Positions 949 to 64,000 of a stretch of DNA of 64,000 nt are shown here, one piece after another. Source of the stretch: a virus (lineage: Duplodnaviria > Heunggongvirae > Uroviricota > Caudoviricetes); IMG/VR virus record IMGVR_UViG_2563366840_000001; one strand, given 5' to 3'. Made by a program: the position numbers and the translations under genes. The notes beneath the pieces are model-generated. The model was not told the origin of the DNA. It saw nothing but the letters and a program-made list of their open reading frames with translations, and did not search any database. Each line of letters begins with the position of its first letter. Positions within the stretch are counted from its first letter, which is position 1.

Positions 949-1980
949 CTAATCGCCATCTTCCAGCAGGCGCACCATTGCCCCTGTTTCACTATCCAGG
1001 TTACGGATATAGTTCATGACAATATTTACGTTGGTCCAGCCACCAGCTTGCATGATCTCCGGTATTGAAACTCCGGCACGGGCCATATCTCGCGCGGCTC
1101 CGACACGGGCACTGTGTCCAGACCAGGCCAGGTACCTCTGGCCAGAGTCATCCTTAGCCCCGTAAATCAATCGGTGAGTTGCTTCAAAAATCCCTTCCAG
1201 GGCGCGAGTTGATAGCTGGCTGGTGGGTGATGGCGAGGCAACACCATTTTTTCTGACCCGGCAAAACAAGTAGTTATTCGGATCATCAGCCACACCAGAG
1301 ACAGAAATCCATCGCTCGACCAGTTTAGTTACCCCCAGGCTAAGTGCCTTCTCTACACCTGCGGTGCTAACCAGCGTTTTCGTTCTGCCAATATGGATTA
1401 ACATTCTCCCACCGTCAGTACGTGAGATATCTTTAACCCTGATCCTGGCAATTTCGGCTATACGTAACAGGGTGTTATAAGCAATCCCCAGAAATGCCAG
1501 ATTACGTATATCCTGGCAGCGATCGCTATTTTCCATGAGTGAACGAACCTGGTCGAAATCAGTGCGTTCGAACGCTAGTGCCTGTTTTGCACGTTCACCG
1601 GCATCAACGTTTTCTTTTCGGATCCGCCGCATAACCAGTGAAACAGCATTGCTGTCACTTAGTCGCGGCAGCCCGGACCGACGATGAAGCATGTTTAGCT
1701 GGCCCAAATGTTGCTGGATAGTTTTTACTGCCAGACCGCGCGCCTGAAGATATAGAAGATAATCGCGAACATCTTCAGGTTCTGCGGGAAACCATTTCCG
1801 GTTATTCAACTTGCACCATGCCGCCCATGACCGGCAAACGGACAGAAGCATTTTCCAGGTATGCTCAGAAAACGCCTGGCGATCCCTGAACATGTCCATC
1901 AGGTTCTTGCGAACCTCATCACTCGTTGCATCGACCGGCAATGCAGGCAAATTTTGGTGTACGGTCAGTAAATTGGACAT
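949..1980 (-). CDS. cre: Cre site-specific tyrosine recombinase (343 aa)
   Basis: Translation MSNLLTVHQNLPALPVDATSDEVRKNLMDMFRDRQAFSEHTWK... ends ...MVRLLEDGD; recognised as P1 Cre; loxP lies 419 bp upstream. Confidence 0.97.
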   Translation of the reverse strand: MSNLLTVHQNLPALPVDATSDEVRKNLMDMFRDRQAFSEHTWKMLLSVCRSWAAWCKLNNRKWFPAEPEDVRDYLLYLQARGLAVKTIQQHLGQLNMLHRRSGLPRLSDSNAVSLVMRRIRKENVDAGERAKQALAFERTDFDQVRSLMENSDRCQDIRNLAFLGIAYNTLLRIAEIARIRVKDISRTDGGRMLIHIGRTKTLVSTAGVEKALSLGVTKLVERWISVSGVADDPNNYLFCRVRKNGVASPSPTSQLSTRALEGIFEATHRLIYGAKDDSGQRYLAWSGHSARVGAARDMARAGVSIPEIMQAGGWTNVNIVMNYIRNLDSETGAMVRLLEDGD

Positions 1981-2813: not shown

Positions 2814-3023
2814 ATGGCTTTCATTCCACCAACCATCGACGACGTTAGACATTGCTCTAACGCTTTATCTGTAGACCCCGCCGAAACCGACGCTGCCCGC
2901 GCCATTGCTGAACACTACTCAAAGATATCCAATCAGGAGTACCGCATCACCCAAGACGACCTGGATGATCTCACTGACACAATCGAATATCTCATGGCCA
3001 CTAACCAGCCAGACTCACAATAA
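2814..3023 (+). CDS. coi: Coi, C1 inactivator (69 aa)
   Basis: Translation MAFIPPTIDDVRHCSNALSVDPAETDAARAIAEHYSKISNQEYRITQDDL...; immediately upstream of c1. Confidence 0.85.
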   Translation: MAFIPPTIDDVRHCSNALSVDPAETDAARAIAEHYSKISNQEYRITQDDLDDLTDTIEYLMATNQPDSQ

Positions 3024-3133
3024 ATGCACTAATAAATCTATTATTTTCGTTGGATCCTTCTATAATGGTGGCCAACAACTCCCAGTGTAATCCGCTGTGA
3101 GTTGTTGGCCATGTCAATTCTGGAGGAGGATCA

Positions 3134-3985
3134 ATGATAAATTATGTCTACGGCGAACAACTGTACCAGGAGTTCGTCAGCTTCAGGGATCTCTTTCTAA
3201 AAAAAGCTGTTGCACGCGCCCAACACGTTGATGCCGCCAGCAACGGTCGTCCTGTACGCCCGGTTGTCGTTCTACCGTTCAAAGAAACTGACAGCATTCA
3301 GGCTGAAATTGATAAATGGACTTTAATGGCGCGGGAACTGGAACAGTACCCAGACCTCAATATCCCAAAGACTATTTTATATCCAGTGCCTAACATCCTT
3401 CGCGGTGTGCGTAAGGTTACAACTTATCAGACAGAGGCTGTGAACAGCGTCAACATGACCGCTGGCCGCATTATTCATCTGATTGATAAGGACATTCGCA
3501 TCCAAAAAAGCGCGGGGATCAATGAGCACAGTGCGAAATACATAGAGAACCTGGAAGCAACAAAAGAGCTAATGAAGCAGTACCCGGAGGATGAAAAATT
3601 CCGTATGCGCGTACACGGCTTTAGCGAAACAATGCTGCGCGTCCATTACATTTCTAGTAGCCCTAACTACAATGATGGTAAATCAGTTAGTTACCATGTG
3701 CCGCTATGTGGTGTGTTTATCTGCGATGAAACTCTCCGTGATGGAATTATCATCAACGGTGAATTCGAGAAAGCAAAATTTAGCCTTTATGACTCCATAG
3801 AACCGATCATCTGCGACCGCTGGCCGCAAGCAAAAATATATCGCCTGGCAGATATTGAAAATGTAAAAAAACAAATTGCCATCACTCGCGAAGAGAAAAA
3901 GGTTAAGTCAGCCGCATCAGTTACGCGCAGTCGTAAAACCAAGAAGGGGCAGCCAGTAAACGACAACCCCGAAAGCGCGCAATAA
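3134..3985 (+). CDS. c1: C1 master repressor of lysogeny (283 aa)
   Basis: Translation MINYVYGEQLYQEFVSFRDLFLKKAVARAQHVDAAS... recognised as P1 C1. Confidence 0.95.
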   Translation: MINYVYGEQLYQEFVSFRDLFLKKAVARAQHVDAASNGRPVRPVVVLPFKETDSIQAEIDKWTLMARELEQYPDLNIPKTILYPVPNILRGVRKVTTYQTEAVNSVNMTAGRIIHLIDKDIRIQKSAGINEHSAKYIENLEATKELMKQYPEDEKFRMRVHGFSETMLRVHYISSSPNYNDGKSVSYHVPLCGVFICDETLRDGIIINGEFEKAKFSLYDSIEPIICDRWPQAKIYRLADIENVKKQIAITREEKKVKSAASVTRSRKTKKGQPVNDNPESAQ

Positions 3986-3989
3986 ATTA

Positions 3990-4016
3990 TGCCCGGCATC
4001 AACCGGGCATTCTTCC
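3990..4016. terminator. Hairpin TGCCCGG-CATCAA-CCGGGCA between convergent c1 and the antirepressor-like gene; possible bidirectional terminator
   Basis: Inverted repeat with T-rich flanks read from sequence. Confidence 0.4.
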
Positions 4017-4017
4017 A

Positions 4018-5130
4018 TTATTCAACCGCCACCGGTTTTAACAAGCCAGCATCGAGCAGTTTACGCGTCAACCACTGCTGGCCTTTACCCGTTAATTGAG
4101 GCGTCAACCGTATCTGGTAGCCATCTTCATCATCCAGCACCACTTCTTTCACCGTGAAATACCCCGCGTTGATGTACTGCTGGAACGGCACATTTTTACG
4201 TCCACCGGACGCTATCAGGATGCCGTTCTCCCGTAACCAGGCAAACAGCGCGTTTTGCTTAAGTCCAACAACCTTTGCAAAATTCCCAATCAGGATCCCT
4301 TTAGCTACTGATACCCGGTCGGCAAAATCGACCTTAGGAGCGGCGGCTACCAGCTGCTGATTTAGCTGGTGGGCTTTCTGTTCCAGAAGCTGCTTTTTTT
4401 CAGCCAGTTCGGCAGCCAGGCGTAGGGCTTCTGGTAATGTTTGGGGGATTGCAACCGGTTGCTGTTCTTTTTGCCGGAAGTAGCTGTCTTCCAGTTTTTC
4501 AAAGAATGCCCATGCTTCATTTGTGTCCACGATCTTAGACATGCGTGCCGCTCCGCGCTCGGCCCAGAGAATTACCTGACTTGTATATTTGCTAACCAAG
4601 TGACTAATAGTCACTAGCCTTTTAAATTCCTTTAATTTTGAACCAGTTAAGAGATAGTAATGCTTACCTTCTTCAAAGCGATCGGGGTTGCGAGACAAAT
4701 TTTTACGAATATTCGCTTCATCGGTCCCATACCCTTTAGCAAGAGTCTCAGTTGTCACTACACGCACTCCCAGCCATTCCAGAACGGGAATTTCATCAGA
4801 CTGATTCTGAACAACCACCAGCTCCGATTCCTGAACTGAAGGTGCATGAATTTTTTCTGATTTAACGTTAGTTGCTTTCATTCTGTGTGCCTCCTTGCGT
4901 GCTTCGGCTGCGACGGTTGCGTAATTCAGATGACCCTGTTCGAGCAGGTATTCGCGGATATCAGACAACAGAATGCGGTGAACAGCGTTCTTGTCCTTTC
5001 TCCGGTAAAGTTGTTTGGTGATCATGAAGTAGTTGGCTATAACGCCTGGTATATCCCTGGTACTGATACAGGCAGTGTGCTGTTCAATTGCCTCGATCAT
5101 CTCTTCACGGGTGACTAATGACGTTCTCAT
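4018..5130 (-). CDS. Antirepressor-like protein (Bro-N/ORF6N-like middle region plus KilA-C/ANT-like C-terminus), 370 aa
   Basis: Motifs ETLAKGYGTDEANIRKNLSRNPDRFEEGKHYYLL and VSVAKGILIGNFAKVVGLKQNALFAWLRENGIL resemble phage antirepressor domains; domain call is from memory. Confidence 0.55.
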   Translation of the reverse strand: MRTSLVTREEMIEAIEQHTACISTRDIPGVIANYFMITKQLYRRKDKNAVHRILLSDIREYLLEQGHLNYATVAAEARKEAHRMKATNVKSEKIHAPSVQESELVVVQNQSDEIPVLEWLGVRVVTTETLAKGYGTDEANIRKNLSRNPDRFEEGKHYYLLTGSKLKEFKRLVTISHLVSKYTSQVILWAERGAARMSKIVDTNEAWAFFEKLEDSYFRQKEQQPVAIPQTLPEALRLAAELAEKKQLLEQKAHQLNQQLVAAAPKVDFADRVSVAKGILIGNFAKVVGLKQNALFAWLRENGILIASGGRKNVPFQQYINAGYFTVKEVVLDDEDGYQIRLTPQLTGKGQQWLTRKLLDAGLLKPVAVE

Positions 5131-5348
5131 AGTCCCTCCTGAGCAGAAGCGTTAACAGGGAGGCACCAGTAACTGAGAGAATTGCGCGAATCAGTAGAAA
5201 AACGGGCGGAGAAAATACAGGGTGCATCAGGAAGCTGAGAGCGAGCCTCATCTTCTGTCGGTGCAATAACGAAGTGATAGTGACGTTTCTGGCAGGAGTA
5301 AAAGCGCCAGATAAATTCAGGATGAGTTGGGGTAGGGATAGTAGCCAT
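5127..5348 (-). CDS. Hypothetical 73-aa protein, translationally coupled (ATGA overlap) to the antirepressor-like gene
   Basis: Strong RBS AAAGGAGG 7 nt upstream of ATG on the minus strand; 4-nt overlap with downstream gene. Confidence 0.45.
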   Translation of the reverse strand: MATIPTPTHPEFIWRFYSCQKRHYHFVIAPTEDEARSQLPDAPCIFSARFSTDSRNSLSYWCLPVNASAQEGL

Positions 5349-5533
5349 AATGGCAGCCTCCTTTGACTAAGTTAAGGAGCTACCGCGTGAGGTTCCAATC
5401 TCAATGGCGGTAGCACTGACTGGGTTGGAACTACCGGCGTCAAAGGGAACCGGCCTGCCTTTCGGCAGCCCAGCCAGCACTACCATTGATCTCTGAGCTA
5501 AACGCTACGTATGGCCGTGCGATGGCATGACAC

Positions 5534-5555
5534 AAAAAAAGACGCTTTTGGCGTC
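5534..5555 (-). terminator. Rho-independent terminator on minus strand (GACGCC-AAAA-GGCGTC then T7), downstream of pacB
   Basis: Stem-loop plus T-run read directly. Confidence 0.55.
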
Positions 5556-5688
5556 TGTGTCGCCTTTGACATTATCCGGGGTTCCAATCCCGGCACCCGT
5601 TTTAATGAGGTGCCTGATAAGCATAAACCGAAAATGCCTCAAGGCGCAAGAGGTCAGGTTCAATGTAACATCGGTAGCTAAAAAACAC

Positions 5689-5705
5689 AATTTATTAGAG
5701 CAAAT
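5689..5705. promoter_or_regulatory. C1 operator-like site just past the pacB stop
   Basis: AATTTATTAGAGCAA matches 15 of 17 consensus positions. Confidence 0.5.
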
Positions 5706-5707
5706 GT

Positions 5708-7192
5708 TCATTCATTAAGCCATGCCAGAGCTTCATCAACCTGCGCTTCGTCTTCGACGCTAAGCACTTCATCCTGGGGAACATAATCCGCCAGCATAGC
5801 GAAACAATATGTATCCCAATGGTCTGGTGAGTGCAGGTTGAGTTTTTTCTTCATATCCTCCTTACTCATCACCTTCCATTGACCTGCGGAGTTAATCCCT
5901 ACAGGGATTTTCGACGCTTCCTCAATAGTTTCATTACCCTTATCCAGTCTCATACGACCAGATTTTACGGCCTCTGCGGCTTGAACGTTGGCATAAGCAC
6001 GTTTATCAAAGTACAGGCTCTTATCTTCACGGCTATGCATCTTTTTACCCCAGCGTATACGCTGTACGGTAATACCATAATACTCGTACATCAGATCCGC
6101 CGTTGCTTTACCCAGCCCATCACCGTCTATCGCTATGGTGATATTTGGGAATCGCTCAGGATTACATTCTGCGAAAATTTTGGCGGCAAGCTGCGTTTCT
6201 GTAACGTCTGTGTATTCCAGCATTCGATAGTTGATTACACGGCGTTTATTTCTCTGGCCGGACACCATCATGATATTGATAACGGACTTATCCCGTCCCG
6301 TACCACCAGCAACGTCCACACATGCAAGCCAGCCCCATCCTTTGGCAATCTTGACTTTCCGCCGCGTCGCACGTTCAACCTCATCACGTCCAAGAAGGAA
6401 GCCATCCTGTGATTTAGGGAATAGTCCGCGTACCTTAATCATGTACATAGGGTTATCACGCCCGCCGTACTCCGCCAGCTTCATTTTGATAAATGCTGGC
6501 GTTACCAGCGGTGATTCCTCACTGTTAAGCGTGATCGCCGTATAAACGCCATCAGGGTTACCAGGACGCTTGGCCAGTTTATGGTGAGTATCGTAGAAAT
6601 AGCCGCTTGGGCGTGTAGGCTGTGACAATAATAAGATGCGGTTATCCTGTCCGGTAAGAGCACCAGTGATGATACCGAAAGCTCTATCACTGACACCGGA
6701 GGCTTCATCGATAATATACAGAAGATGATCTGCGTGTTCACCGGCGAGAGCTTCTTCACTTCCCAGACGAAAGCCCTTCGGTACTACAGTCCATACACCT
6801 TTACCAGTAACCTCATAGAAAGCGGTTTCTGTCAGAACAAAATAATCAGCAAGCCATGGAAAACGGCTGGTGGCAGTAGCCCAGTTTATCTTGATGTACT
6901 TGAATATACCGGTCATTACCTGCTGAATTTTGTTCGCAACGATAATGGCGCGGGCACCGGGATACATGATTATGAACAACATGATCATGATAGAAGTCAT
7001 GTCTGATTTCCCGGTACCGTGACCAGACGAAACAGATGTCTTGCTACCCTGTTCCTGCACAGACTCAATAATCAGATCCTGCTGCCAGGTAGGTGTTTTG
7101 CCGAACAAAACATCAGCGGCAGCAATCCAGTCATAACGATATAGCGCCACCAGCTCGCGCCAACGTGGATCCGTTACGCAACTTCTGGCCAT
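5708..7192 (-). CDS. pacB: PacB, terminase large subunit (494 aa)
   Basis: Walker A GHGTGKS and YIIDEA motif; follows pacA with overlapping stop/start as in P1. Confidence 0.9.
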
Positions 7193-8923: not shown

Positions 8924-8999
8924 CCTGTCACCTACTGATTAGCCCATGTCAACTAATCAACGTCGAATATAATACCATCGATTAAAGAAATAGCAATGC

Positions 9000-9010
9000 A
9001 TTAGAGCAAT
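9000..9010. promoter_or_regulatory. C1 operator-like site upstream of lpa
   Basis: ATTAGAGCAAT core about 80 bp upstream of the lpa start. Confidence 0.55.
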
Positions 9011-17602: not shown

Positions 17603-17619
17603 ATATTTATTAGAGCAAT
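17603..17619. promoter_or_regulatory. C1 operator at the 3' end of the HAD-like gene
   Basis: ATATTTATTAGAGCAAT, 16 of 17 consensus positions. Confidence 0.6.
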
Positions 17620-32211: not shown

Positions 32212-32321
32212 TCCACCCAGGCGTGCTGAATGTCAGATATATGATTAGACTTGAGATAAATGACAGGGGATAAGTGAGATAATTATGGGAAGTACTGGGT
32301 CAACATGGGAAGAGACTGGAT

Positions 32322-34108: not shown

Positions 34109-34391
34109 AAGTCACCCCCAGGCGTTCGGCAAGGCGTTCCAGCTTTTTCTGCTTATGAAAATCAATCATCAGGCCCATCCCGTTTAGGCGGAACTGTTCA
34201 ATCATGATTTCAACGTCAGCCAGTTCGCCTGCCAGATCAACTTCATTGCCCAGTCCGTTCATGTTGCGGGCAGCAGCAGCGGCCAGTTCGGCAGCTTCTT
34301 CCATCAGCTTCAGAGCCTGAGCTTCTGGGCCGAAGGTTTTGAGGGCCAGATTGTAGATCGTCGAACGGTTATATAATTTCATGCCTTTCAT
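34095..34391 (-). CDS. Hypothetical early protein (98 aa)
   Basis: ORF track. Confidence 0.45.
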   Translation of the reverse strand: MKGMKLYNRSTIYNLALKTFGPEAQALKLMEEAAELAAAAARNMNGLGNEVDLAGELADVEIMIEQFRLNGMGLMIDFHKQKKLERLAERLGVTYAAE

Positions 34392-63498: not shown

Positions 63499-64000
63499 AT
63501 GGCAAACCTACCTGAAACACCGCAGTGGGAAGAAGGCATCTACCAGATTGAGGTCTCTGACCCCGTTCTGGGTGGGCCTGACGGAATCTCTAACCGTCAG
63601 GGTAAACAACTGGCCAGCCGCACGCTGTACCTGAAGCAACAGGTTGAAAAAGGCGGTTCTGAACTTGCGAAACACATCGCGGCAGCAGACCCGCATACCC
63701 AGTACGCACCGAAAGCCAGCCCGACATTCACCGGCACGCCAACAGCGCCTACGCCTGCAAATAGTGATAACAGCAAGAAGCTGGCGACGACAGAGTTTGT
63801 GGCCAAAGCACTTGCGGCGCTTGCTGGCAGCGCTCCTGAGACGCTGGATACGCTCAAAGAGCTGGCTGATGCCCTCGGCAACGATCCGAATTTTGCGACC
63901 ACGGTGTTGAACAAGCTGGCGGAAAAGCTGGCCAAAGACCAGCACGGCGCAGATATTCCTGACCCGGCGCTCTTTGTCAAAAACCTTGGTTTGGGAGAAG
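63499..64000 (+). CDS. Tail fibre protein, N-terminal part; continues beyond window end
   Basis: ATG at 63499 gives MANLPETPQWEEGIYQIEVSDPVLGG...; open to the window edge, so absent from ORF track. Confidence 0.6.
   Translation, partial: MANLPETPQWEEGIYQIEVSDPVLGGPDGISNRQGKQLASRTLYLKQQVEKGGSELAKHIAAADPHTQYAPKASPTFTGTPTAPTPANSDNSKKLATTEFVAKALAALAGSAPETLDTLKELADALGNDPNFATTVLNKLAEKLAKDQHGADIPDPALFVKNLGLGE

Follow-up and report, generated by a model that had tools for sequence, protein, structure and literature searches.

Background

P1 and P7 are heteroimmune because of their immI locus. As annotated in P1, the immI products Ant1 and Ant2 antagonise the repressor C1, and the c4 RNA sets the specificity of P1 and P7 immunity. 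In the isrK-orf45-anrP locus of the lambdoid prophage Gifsy-1 the IsrK RNA acts in trans to activate translation of orf45 and of the coupled antirepressor AnrP (140-fold for the antirepressor), and the orf45 region gives rise to a processed species of about 80 nt (PMC4825925). The published model ascribes this activation to pairing of IsrK with orf45 and not to a C4 antisense RNA (Hershko-Shalev et al. 2016, PMC4825925), and neither 'phage P1' nor 'c4 antisense RNA' occurs among the words of that paper. Here we examine a 64,000-nt stretch of viral DNA (Caudoviricetes; IMG/VR record IMGVR_UViG_2563366840_000001), hereafter the window, in which the c1 and pacB genes of a P1-like phage-plasmid are separated by a segment (3986-5707, hereafter the cassette) that probably constitutes a complete immI-type operon, a second copy of the c4-icd-ant1/ant2 module of P1 and P7.

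A probable immI-type operon between c1 and pacB

The stop codons of c1 and pacB are 24 bp apart in reference P1 and P7, whereas in the window those of c1 (3134-3985, plus strand) and pacB (5708-7192, minus strand) are 1.72 kb apart, with the cassette substituting for the P1 spacer exactly between the two. An earlier note, made from the letters of this DNA, had rightly placed pacB directly next to c1 on the P1 map, and had described a 370-aa open reading frame (ORF; 4018-5130, minus strand) preceded by a coupled 73-aa ORF (5127-5348, minus strand). Both sets of coordinates are correct, the coupling consists of an ATGA stop/start overlap at 5130..5127, and alignment of the c1-pacB interval with P1 and P7 places neither gene at this position in P1. 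The extra DNA is, however, longer than the 4018-5348 given there.

Read along the minus strand from the pacB stop codon towards c1, the cassette presents a C1-operator-like site over a weak putative promoter, an IsrK-class RNA that carries sites a1 and b1 and ends in a terminator, a C4 antisense RNA gene, the target sites a2 and b2, an icd-like gene, an ant1/ant2-like gene and a hairpin. The order and orientation of all elements are those of P1/P7 immI; alignment with the annotated P1 region also shows, in both, a second promoter position and a terminator-like hairpin between a1/b1 and c4, and puts the C1-operator-like site where P1 has its operator over the upstream promoter. Cassette and immI further share C4 targets both upstream and downstream, a C4 RNA of the same Rfam family, the placement of b2 over the icd ribosome-binding site, a 73-aa Icd, the ATGA overlap, a nested Ant2 start and a KilAC C-terminus (about 88% identical). 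The differences are that the classical locus lies between sim and kilA-repL while the cassette lies between pacB and c1; that the a1/b1 element is of the IsrK class in the cassette and of the c4-a1b1 class in P1; that the C4 loops are unrelated and the centre of the cassette Ant is an ORF6N domain; and that a 39-aa ORF runs through the cassette C4, compared with only 14 codons in P1. Map position is a property of the classical immI locus and not of the mechanism, and on every other feature that can be tested from sequence the cassette is a member of the c4-icd-ant family.

Drawing on the annotation of P1, on the P1 literature and on the work on Gifsy-1 (PMC4825925), we propose that the operon would function as follows. 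The C4 RNA would be cut out of the leader transcript, as is done by RNase P in P1, and would pair with a2 and b2, blocking the translation of icd. Since ant depends on icd translation, the same block would keep Ant off too, and a resident prophage would stay repressed. Ant1 and Ant2 would be made when C4 is absent, as when the phage enters a cell without a matching C4, or when C4 is titrated, which by analogy with the Gifsy-1 result might happen through build-up of the short IsrK-like RNA and its binding to the C4 loops. Once made, Ant would antagonise C1. Control of the operon by C4 is well supported by the covariation described below and by two experimentally studied relatives.

The C4 RNA, the IsrK-class leader and their target sites

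Scanning the window against Rfam at gathering thresholds recovered a full-length C4 antisense RNA gene at 5403..5490 on the minus strand (RF01695, 77.1 bits against a gathering threshold of 45, E = 2.4e-13), with a CCA visible 3' of its closing stem. On the same strand, an IsrK-class RNA element was recovered at 5535..5613 (RF01394, 62.6 bits against a threshold of 50), and a terminator scan found that it ends in an intrinsic terminator, a hairpin at 5556..5540 followed by a run of seven Ts. The same pair of C4 and IsrK-class RNAs is present in RCS47 and JL22, and in P1 the slot equivalent to the IsrK-class element is matched by RF03163 (c4-a1b1).

The recognition loops of the C4 RNA are b' CCUUUGAC (5446..5439) and a' GUUCCAA (5431..5425). 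The motifs UUGGAAC and GUCAAAGG each occur twice on the cassette strand, once within the IsrK-class element, as a1 (5587..5581) and b1 (5570..5563), and once between C4 and icd, as a2 (5392..5398) and b2 (5367..5360), which are complementary over 7 bp to a' and over 8 bp to b', respectively. Site b2 is fused to the icd Shine-Dalgarno sequence GGAGG (5361..5357), the two together spanning 5357..5367.

Two small ORFs on the minus strand overlap this leader. The first, of 39 aa (5367-5486), lies over C4 and is named 'ash family protein' by PGAP in relatives. Like orf45 of Gifsy-1, it has its start codon within the conserved AUGG of C4; its stop codon, a UAG overlapping b2, precedes the icd AUG by 17 nt. 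In the L030 group of loci, which has a diverged leader type, its equivalent is fused in frame to icd. We regard this ORF not as spurious but as the positional counterpart of Gifsy-1 orf45. Its translation could help to open C4 or provide coupling to icd; translation may matter, while the protein itself probably does not. The second, of 68 aa (5505-5711; hypothetical gp120 in JL22), has an ATG that overlaps the pacB stop codon (ATGA). We rejected it as a gene, and it is almost certainly not one: it covers the promoters and the IsrK-like RNA, has only a PHROG match at 9e-4, and in relatives is broken by 1-nt frame-breaking indels or changes in the length of T-runs.

Four bases beyond the pacB stop codon, on the cassette strand, lies the C1-operator-like site TTTGCTCTAATAAATTG (5704..5688, minus strand), which matches the P1 C1-operator consensus, ATTGCTCTAATAAATTT, at 15 of 17 positions and overlaps the upstream -35 element. 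Its position and orientation are those of Oc4 in P1 immI, and it is nearly invariant in 47 distinct leaders. Within the window, operator-like sites with up to three mismatches number nine, against 0.22 expected by chance. The eight further sites are located at 2476-2492, 2559-2575 and 3023-3039, all in the cre-coi-c1 region, at 8994-9010, just upstream of lpa, and at 17603-17619, 19695-19760 and 24681-24697. Two promoter-like pairs on the minus strand, TTGTGT-17-TACATT (5690..5662) and TTGAGG-17-TATCAG (5642..5614), were placed only by alignment to the P1 promoters P2c4 and P1c4.

At the other end of the cassette the terminator scan detected a GC-rich hairpin (3989..4010) between the convergent c1 and ant genes, with a 9-bp stem, ATGCCCGG-TTGA-TGCCGGGCAT, that lies 4 nt past the c1 stop codon and 8 nt past that of ant and is flanked on both sides by weak T-runs; it is probably a two-way terminator shared by c1 and ant. 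Of the terminators earlier thought to bracket the two genes, this is the one that does so, the other being the internal one that forms the 3' end of the IsrK-class RNA.

Covariation and specificity alleles

We collected the loci that carry this Icd allele, 79 from IMG/VR and three from a genome collection that holds one genome per species, aligned 25 distinct leaders and counted pairs for the C4 stems and for both long-range sets. All 1050 cells form standard pairs in the 25 leaders; with the partners offset by 1-3 columns the figure falls to 26-49%. Both sides are changed in 16 pairs, nine of them in the C4 stems (alignment A3, 100% paired) and seven among the 15 long-range pairs, a figure that holds for either long-range set. 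For a2/b2 they comprise three of the eight b'/b2 pairs, with no unpaired cell, and four of the seven a'/a2 pairs, again with all cells paired; a1/a' and b1/b' likewise change together, and there too every cell is paired. Compensatory changes that keep every RNA pair in this manner imply ongoing selection on the RNA interactions. On comparative grounds, these patterns argue strongly for selection acting on the C4-target interactions and for a role of these interactions in encoding specificity.

The alleles of the a site are UUGGAAC, UUGAGAC and UUGGCCU/UUGGUCU, and those of the b site GUCAAAGG, GCAAAAGG and GUCUAAGG. The two common a alleles and the two common b alleles are seen in both combinations; such independent assortment implies that the two sites have been recombined. 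Between P1 and P7, a' and b' each differ at two nucleotides and the targets are changed to match; the cassette alleles differ among themselves by 2-nt swaps of the same size. The cassette C4 loops are wholly unlike those of P1 (CUGUCAA for a', UCACUAAC for b') and of P7, which is true of all cassette alleles. It follows that the module should not respond to the classical immI RNAs and should contribute an independent immunity specificity. Energies computed with RNAduplex always rank the cognate pairs best, but the measure is crude and includes stem bases, and we give it little weight.

The classical P1-type leaders (L072-L087, together with L008 from P1 and L091 from P7), which combine c4-a1b1 with C4, have an allele series of their own. 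In IMG/VR this series comprises two a alleles (UUGACAG and UUAGCAG) and no fewer than five b alleles; every one has its counterpart in the C4 loop, and P7 represents one of the combinations.

Relationship to Gifsy-1 and to other leaders

In Gifsy-1 (NC_010392, 34076-34330; our locus L092) we found a full C4 RNA at 34214..34131, scoring 69 bits, over the orf45 region, and the isrK match coincides with a c4-a1b1 match. IsrK would therefore be the a1b1 element, and orf45 would overlie a C4 gene. The pairing segments are complementary, both for a1/a'/a2 (UUGGCGU/ACGCCAA) and for b1/b'/b2 (UCACCG/CGGUGA), and b2 lies at the anrP Shine-Dalgarno sequence. The cassette and isrK-orf45-anrP accordingly share a terminated IsrK-class RNA followed by a C4-family RNA, an ORF that starts from the C4 AUGG and an antirepressor-like gene downstream. 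They differ in that Gifsy-1 has no icd, its orf45 overlapping anrP directly by AUGA, whereas the cassette 39-aa ORF stops before an interposed icd; Gifsy-1 further has a shorter AnrP (gene of 564 nt), lacks a C1 operator, and carries the locus after the Q antiterminator of a lambdoid prophage. To judge from these likenesses, Gifsy-1 and P1 immI would share one RNA design, with the cassette representing a Gifsy-type leader placed before P1-type genes.

The leader design is widespread in Shiga toxin (Stx)-converting phages. A close relative of the cassette leader is found in the phage-plasmid D6, where identity reaches 91.6% over the IsrK-like element, C4 and the start of icd, and where the next gene is annotated as Icd-like; D6, however, belongs to another phage-plasmid genus, the sequence lies at a locus of its own and the DNA likeness is limited to the leader and the icd start. 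The immunity region of P4, with its CI RNA and an 'ash' ORF over it, resembles the C4 part and beyond (73.7% over about 155 nt), which accounts for the PGAP name 'ash family protein' of the ORF over C4. The P4 CI RNA brings about premature transcription termination of the P4 early operon and not a translation block of icd-ant, and no Icd or Ant genes are known to follow it.

The Icd-like and Ant proteins

The icd-like gene (5127..5348, minus strand) encodes a 73-aa protein of the NCBIfam family NF033153, phage_ICD_like (E = 2.6e-13, 49.8 bits against a cut-off of 25), which matches PHROG 1426 (1e-45) and is identical to P1 Icd at 54 of 73 residues (74%). It is translationally coupled to ant by an ATGA overlap identical to that of icd and ant1 in P1. 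P1 Icd, likewise of 73 aa, is reported to target FtsZ, to inhibit the growth of E. coli and to block Z-ring formation rapidly (PMC11897509), and overproduction of IsrK in Salmonella leads to growth arrest via AnrP and AntQ (PMC4825925). These properties would also be expected of a device serving the host or the plasmid, resembling a toxin with an RNA antitoxin or an abortive infection system, in which C4 restrains Icd and the KilAC protein and division stops on loss of C4 or on disturbance by a foreign phage. We consider such a role quite improbable. PADLOC does give matches of the ORF6N region to the candidate family PDC-S05 (E = 4e-5 to 9e-5), but these are weak and concern a generic domain only, and the search returned no known defence system and nothing for the Icd-like protein. 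The toxin mRNA would, moreover, be controlled by an RNA from the same transcript, an arrangement with no obvious post-segregational logic, and the cassette has the architecture of an immunity operon, including a C1-operator-like site.

The ant1-like gene (4018..5130, minus strand) encodes a 370-aa protein with an Ant1-type N-terminus, an ORF6N centre and a KilAC/ANT C-terminal domain, and has a GGAGG 6 nt before its ATG. Hidden Markov model searches against Pfam, run on this protein as the earlier note had suggested, assign residues 117-200 to ORF6N (61.6 bits, cut-off 27.8, E = 9e-17) and residues 258-359 to ANT/KilAC (109.6 bits, cut-off 25.3, E = 1.2e-31). The proposed ORF6N-like and KilA-C/ANT-like regions are thus borne out, while Bro-N, named alongside them, is absent from the reported domains. 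Over residues 1-369 the protein matches PHROG 63, 'anti-repressor Ant' (2e-131), and it shares with the phage antirepressors of that family the order of ORF6N followed by KilAC/ANT. The idea of an antirepressor with an immunity or anti-immunity role beside c1 therefore holds in general terms, the cassette being a paralogue of P1 immI. The genes had been treated as an unusual insertion, however, and the C4 RNA control, the a1/b1 and a2/b2 targets, the IsrK-type leader and the C1-operator-like site had all been missed.

Aligned by BLASTP to P1 Ant1, the cassette Ant is 56% identical overall, with residues 1-93 about 70% and residues 227-369 about 88% identical, and between them an ORF6N centre that is unrelated to the centre of P1 Ant1, in which there is no Pfam domain. 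The DNA follows the same pattern in comparison with P1 immI, at 70.7% identity over icd and the 5' part of ant and 81.4% over the 3' part of ant, with an unrelated middle. An in-frame internal ATG at codon 84 opens a nested ant2-like frame of 287 aa (4018..4881, minus strand), whose start, AAGGAGG-N8-ATG (4896..4879), has the same layout as the Ant2 start of P1 (AAGGAGGCACAtAGAATG); its Shine-Dalgarno sequence and ATG are present in all 76 related loci examined. A search for solved structures related to Ant gave nothing meaningful, only chance matches to ribosomal protein L9 (E about 2e-3).

The centre of Ant is also the variable part of the protein: among cassettes at the pacB-c1 site it ranges from 64% to 100% identity, and in some (L009, L042) it is replaced by a P1-type centre. 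Such variation is expected of a target-recognition module under diversifying selection, and together with the presence of ORF6N in place of the P1 Ant1 centre it might indicate that the same RNA control serves another target, the ORF6N-KilAC protein acting, for example, in trans on the repressor of a co-resident prophage, as antirepressors of the Gifsy phages do, or as a DNA-binding regulator akin to Roi or Rha. The JL22 annotation calls the gene 'roi, DNA binding protein', a name that belongs to Roi of HK022; in many Stx phages a leader of this type stands before ant, Rha-family or regulator genes; and AnrP of Gifsy-1 turns on the antQ operon (PMC4825925). We nevertheless regard a different target as unlikely. 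The N-terminal 93 and the C-terminal 143 residues retain their identity to P1 Ant1 and the Ant2 start is kept, and the cassette has a C1-operator-like site and adjoins c1 in P1-like genomes. Furthermore, an ORF6N-type Ant also occurs at the classical immI position before kilA-repL in some P1-like contigs (L035), and the two types of centre are therefore interchangeable within immI.

Several points weigh against the cassette being a complete immI-type operon that acts on C1. The central third of Ant, being ORF6N and unlike the centre of P1 Ant1, could confer a different target; inactivation of C1 by the cassette Ant is predicted from partial homology and is the main uncertainty. The predicted operator at 5704..5688 has two mismatches, both at the outermost positions, a consensus promoter scan found nothing upstream of the leader, and the hexamers placed by alignment are weak. 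By rough duplex energies, the margin between the cognate pairs and some non-cognate cassette pairs is no more than a few kcal/mol. At 32,242 a Mu-like prophage breaks the P1-like backbone, and the window contains neither the classical immI nor kilA or repL, so the host element may be defective. Finally, transcription of the operon, processing of C4, repression of icd and the activity of Ant are all predicted by homology.

Distribution of the cassette

When aligned to the window, P1, P7, SJ46 and phiW39 match as two flank pieces and skip the interval, whereas RCS47, JL22 and vB_EcoM-673R5 match without interruption across it; the last three carry the classical immI as well as the cassette. In PLSDB, 703 plasmids have the c1 and pacB ends; 314 of these show the empty P1-type junction, the rest being occupied or rearranged, and 301 plasmids hold at least 80% of the cassette. 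The order pacB, cassette, c1 is found in about 60 of the 79 IMG/VR loci. The earlier description of the genes as inserted is consequently right relative to P1, but about half of the c1-bearing PLSDB plasmids have an occupied site, a frequency similar to that of the empty state, and loss in P1 or gain in the others may each account for the difference. We rejected a simple transposon-like insertion, as no target-site duplication or terminal repeats were seen at the cassette edges and these edges fall exactly at both stop codons. The presence of the cassette is also independent of the alleles at its flanks, the 100% and 89% PacB types each being found with occupied and with empty sites.

With P1, P7 and some 45% of plasmids having nothing at this site, the cassette is dispensable, and one might suspect a decaying immI duplicate without current function. 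In the four closest plasmids (99.1% identical; NZ_CP019262.1, our L007, and three others) the listed features include the icd-like and 'ash' ORFs but not ant, which may have become a pseudogene in these plasmids or may simply be missing from an incomplete PLSDB gene table. That the cassette is an inert passenger is nonetheless most improbable, given that the window and nearly all of the 79 IMG/VR loci have both ORFs intact, that the Ant2 start is kept in 76 of 76, and that compensatory changes preserve every RNA pair in the 25 leaders.

Some loci (L035, L045, L064) have the leader and Ant type of the cassette at the classical immI position, followed by kilA-repL. With cassette-type parts at classical immI and a P1-type Ant centre in some cassettes (L009, L042), the two loci therefore appear to exchange parts. 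A broader proposal, to which we give slightly less than even odds, is that P1-like phage-plasmids have a two-locus, RNA-coded immunity. The pacB-c1 interval would be a hot spot exchanging immI-type modules, with at least three a and at least three b recombining C4 alleles that assort independently and with interchangeable Ant centres, generating many immunity groups that decide superinfection, coexistence and mutual induction among P1-like elements, many of which carry resistance genes; in this proposal 'orf45' of Gifsy-1 would be a C4 gene.

Two further observations were made during the survey. One IMG/VR contig of 42 kb (2698536372_000019; L015, L081, L086) contains three separate c4-icd-ant modules, and several other contigs contain two. 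A 3.8-kb contig assigned to a 'Bacillota bacterium' metagenome-assembled genome (JAFAFU010000035.1; L090) carries pacB, the cassette and c1 with 96-99% protein identity to those of the window; its assignment is probably a binning error or contamination.

Prior descriptions and implications

The presence of an ant gene at the pacB-c1 site has already been noted, with mention of RCS47, by Venturini et al. 2019 (PMC6906374). The RCS47 annotation names the gene ant, and PGAP names all three ORFs of the interval; the JL22 paper (PMC9603915) contains no discussion of the pacB-c1 region. An account of the cassette as a c4-controlled second immI with alleles of its own was not found in the open literature, a search that excluded most subscription journals. 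No part of the cassette is of a new kind, and that the gene occurs here has been published; what is new is the full anatomy, the allele system and the equivalence of IsrK and a1b1.

Phage-plasmids of the P1 type, frequent carriers of resistance genes, are common in E. coli and Salmonella, and P1 is used for transduction and DNA delivery. If the cassette works as we propose, about half of natural P1-like elements would have a second antirepressor switch, one on which the classical c4 RNA has no effect. Typing by P1/P7 immI only would then mispredict mutual exclusion, which phages override a resident C1 and which plasmids block P1-based vectors. The natural allele series would offer ready-made orthogonal pairs of antisense RNA and target. 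Reading IsrK as a1b1 and the orf45 region as C4 would provide a simple common interpretation of two experimentally studied systems, and Gifsy-1 orf45 as a C4 gene, if true, would join two literatures that are unconnected in searchable papers.

Other features of the window

Over its first 32 kb the window carries a P1-like (Punavirus) phage-plasmid backbone in reversed orientation with respect to the P1 map, with the gene order cre (949-1980, minus strand), coi, c1, pacB, pacA and lpa. From 32,242 to the end at 64000 the window consists of a Mu-like transposable prophage, which abuts the P1-like backbone and runs off the window end. Its identity to Klebsiella phage KP12 is 96.8%, and a DDE transposase and an ExeA/MuB-like gene lie at its end. 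The junction at 32,242 was found in no complete E. coli genome of the collection searched. The arrangement looks like one phage inserted in another, and the insertion may have inactivated the P1-like element. Within the P1-like part, at 20935-21051 on the minus strand, lies an ALIL pseudoknot scoring 120 bits, the frameshift signal of an IS3-family insertion sequence.

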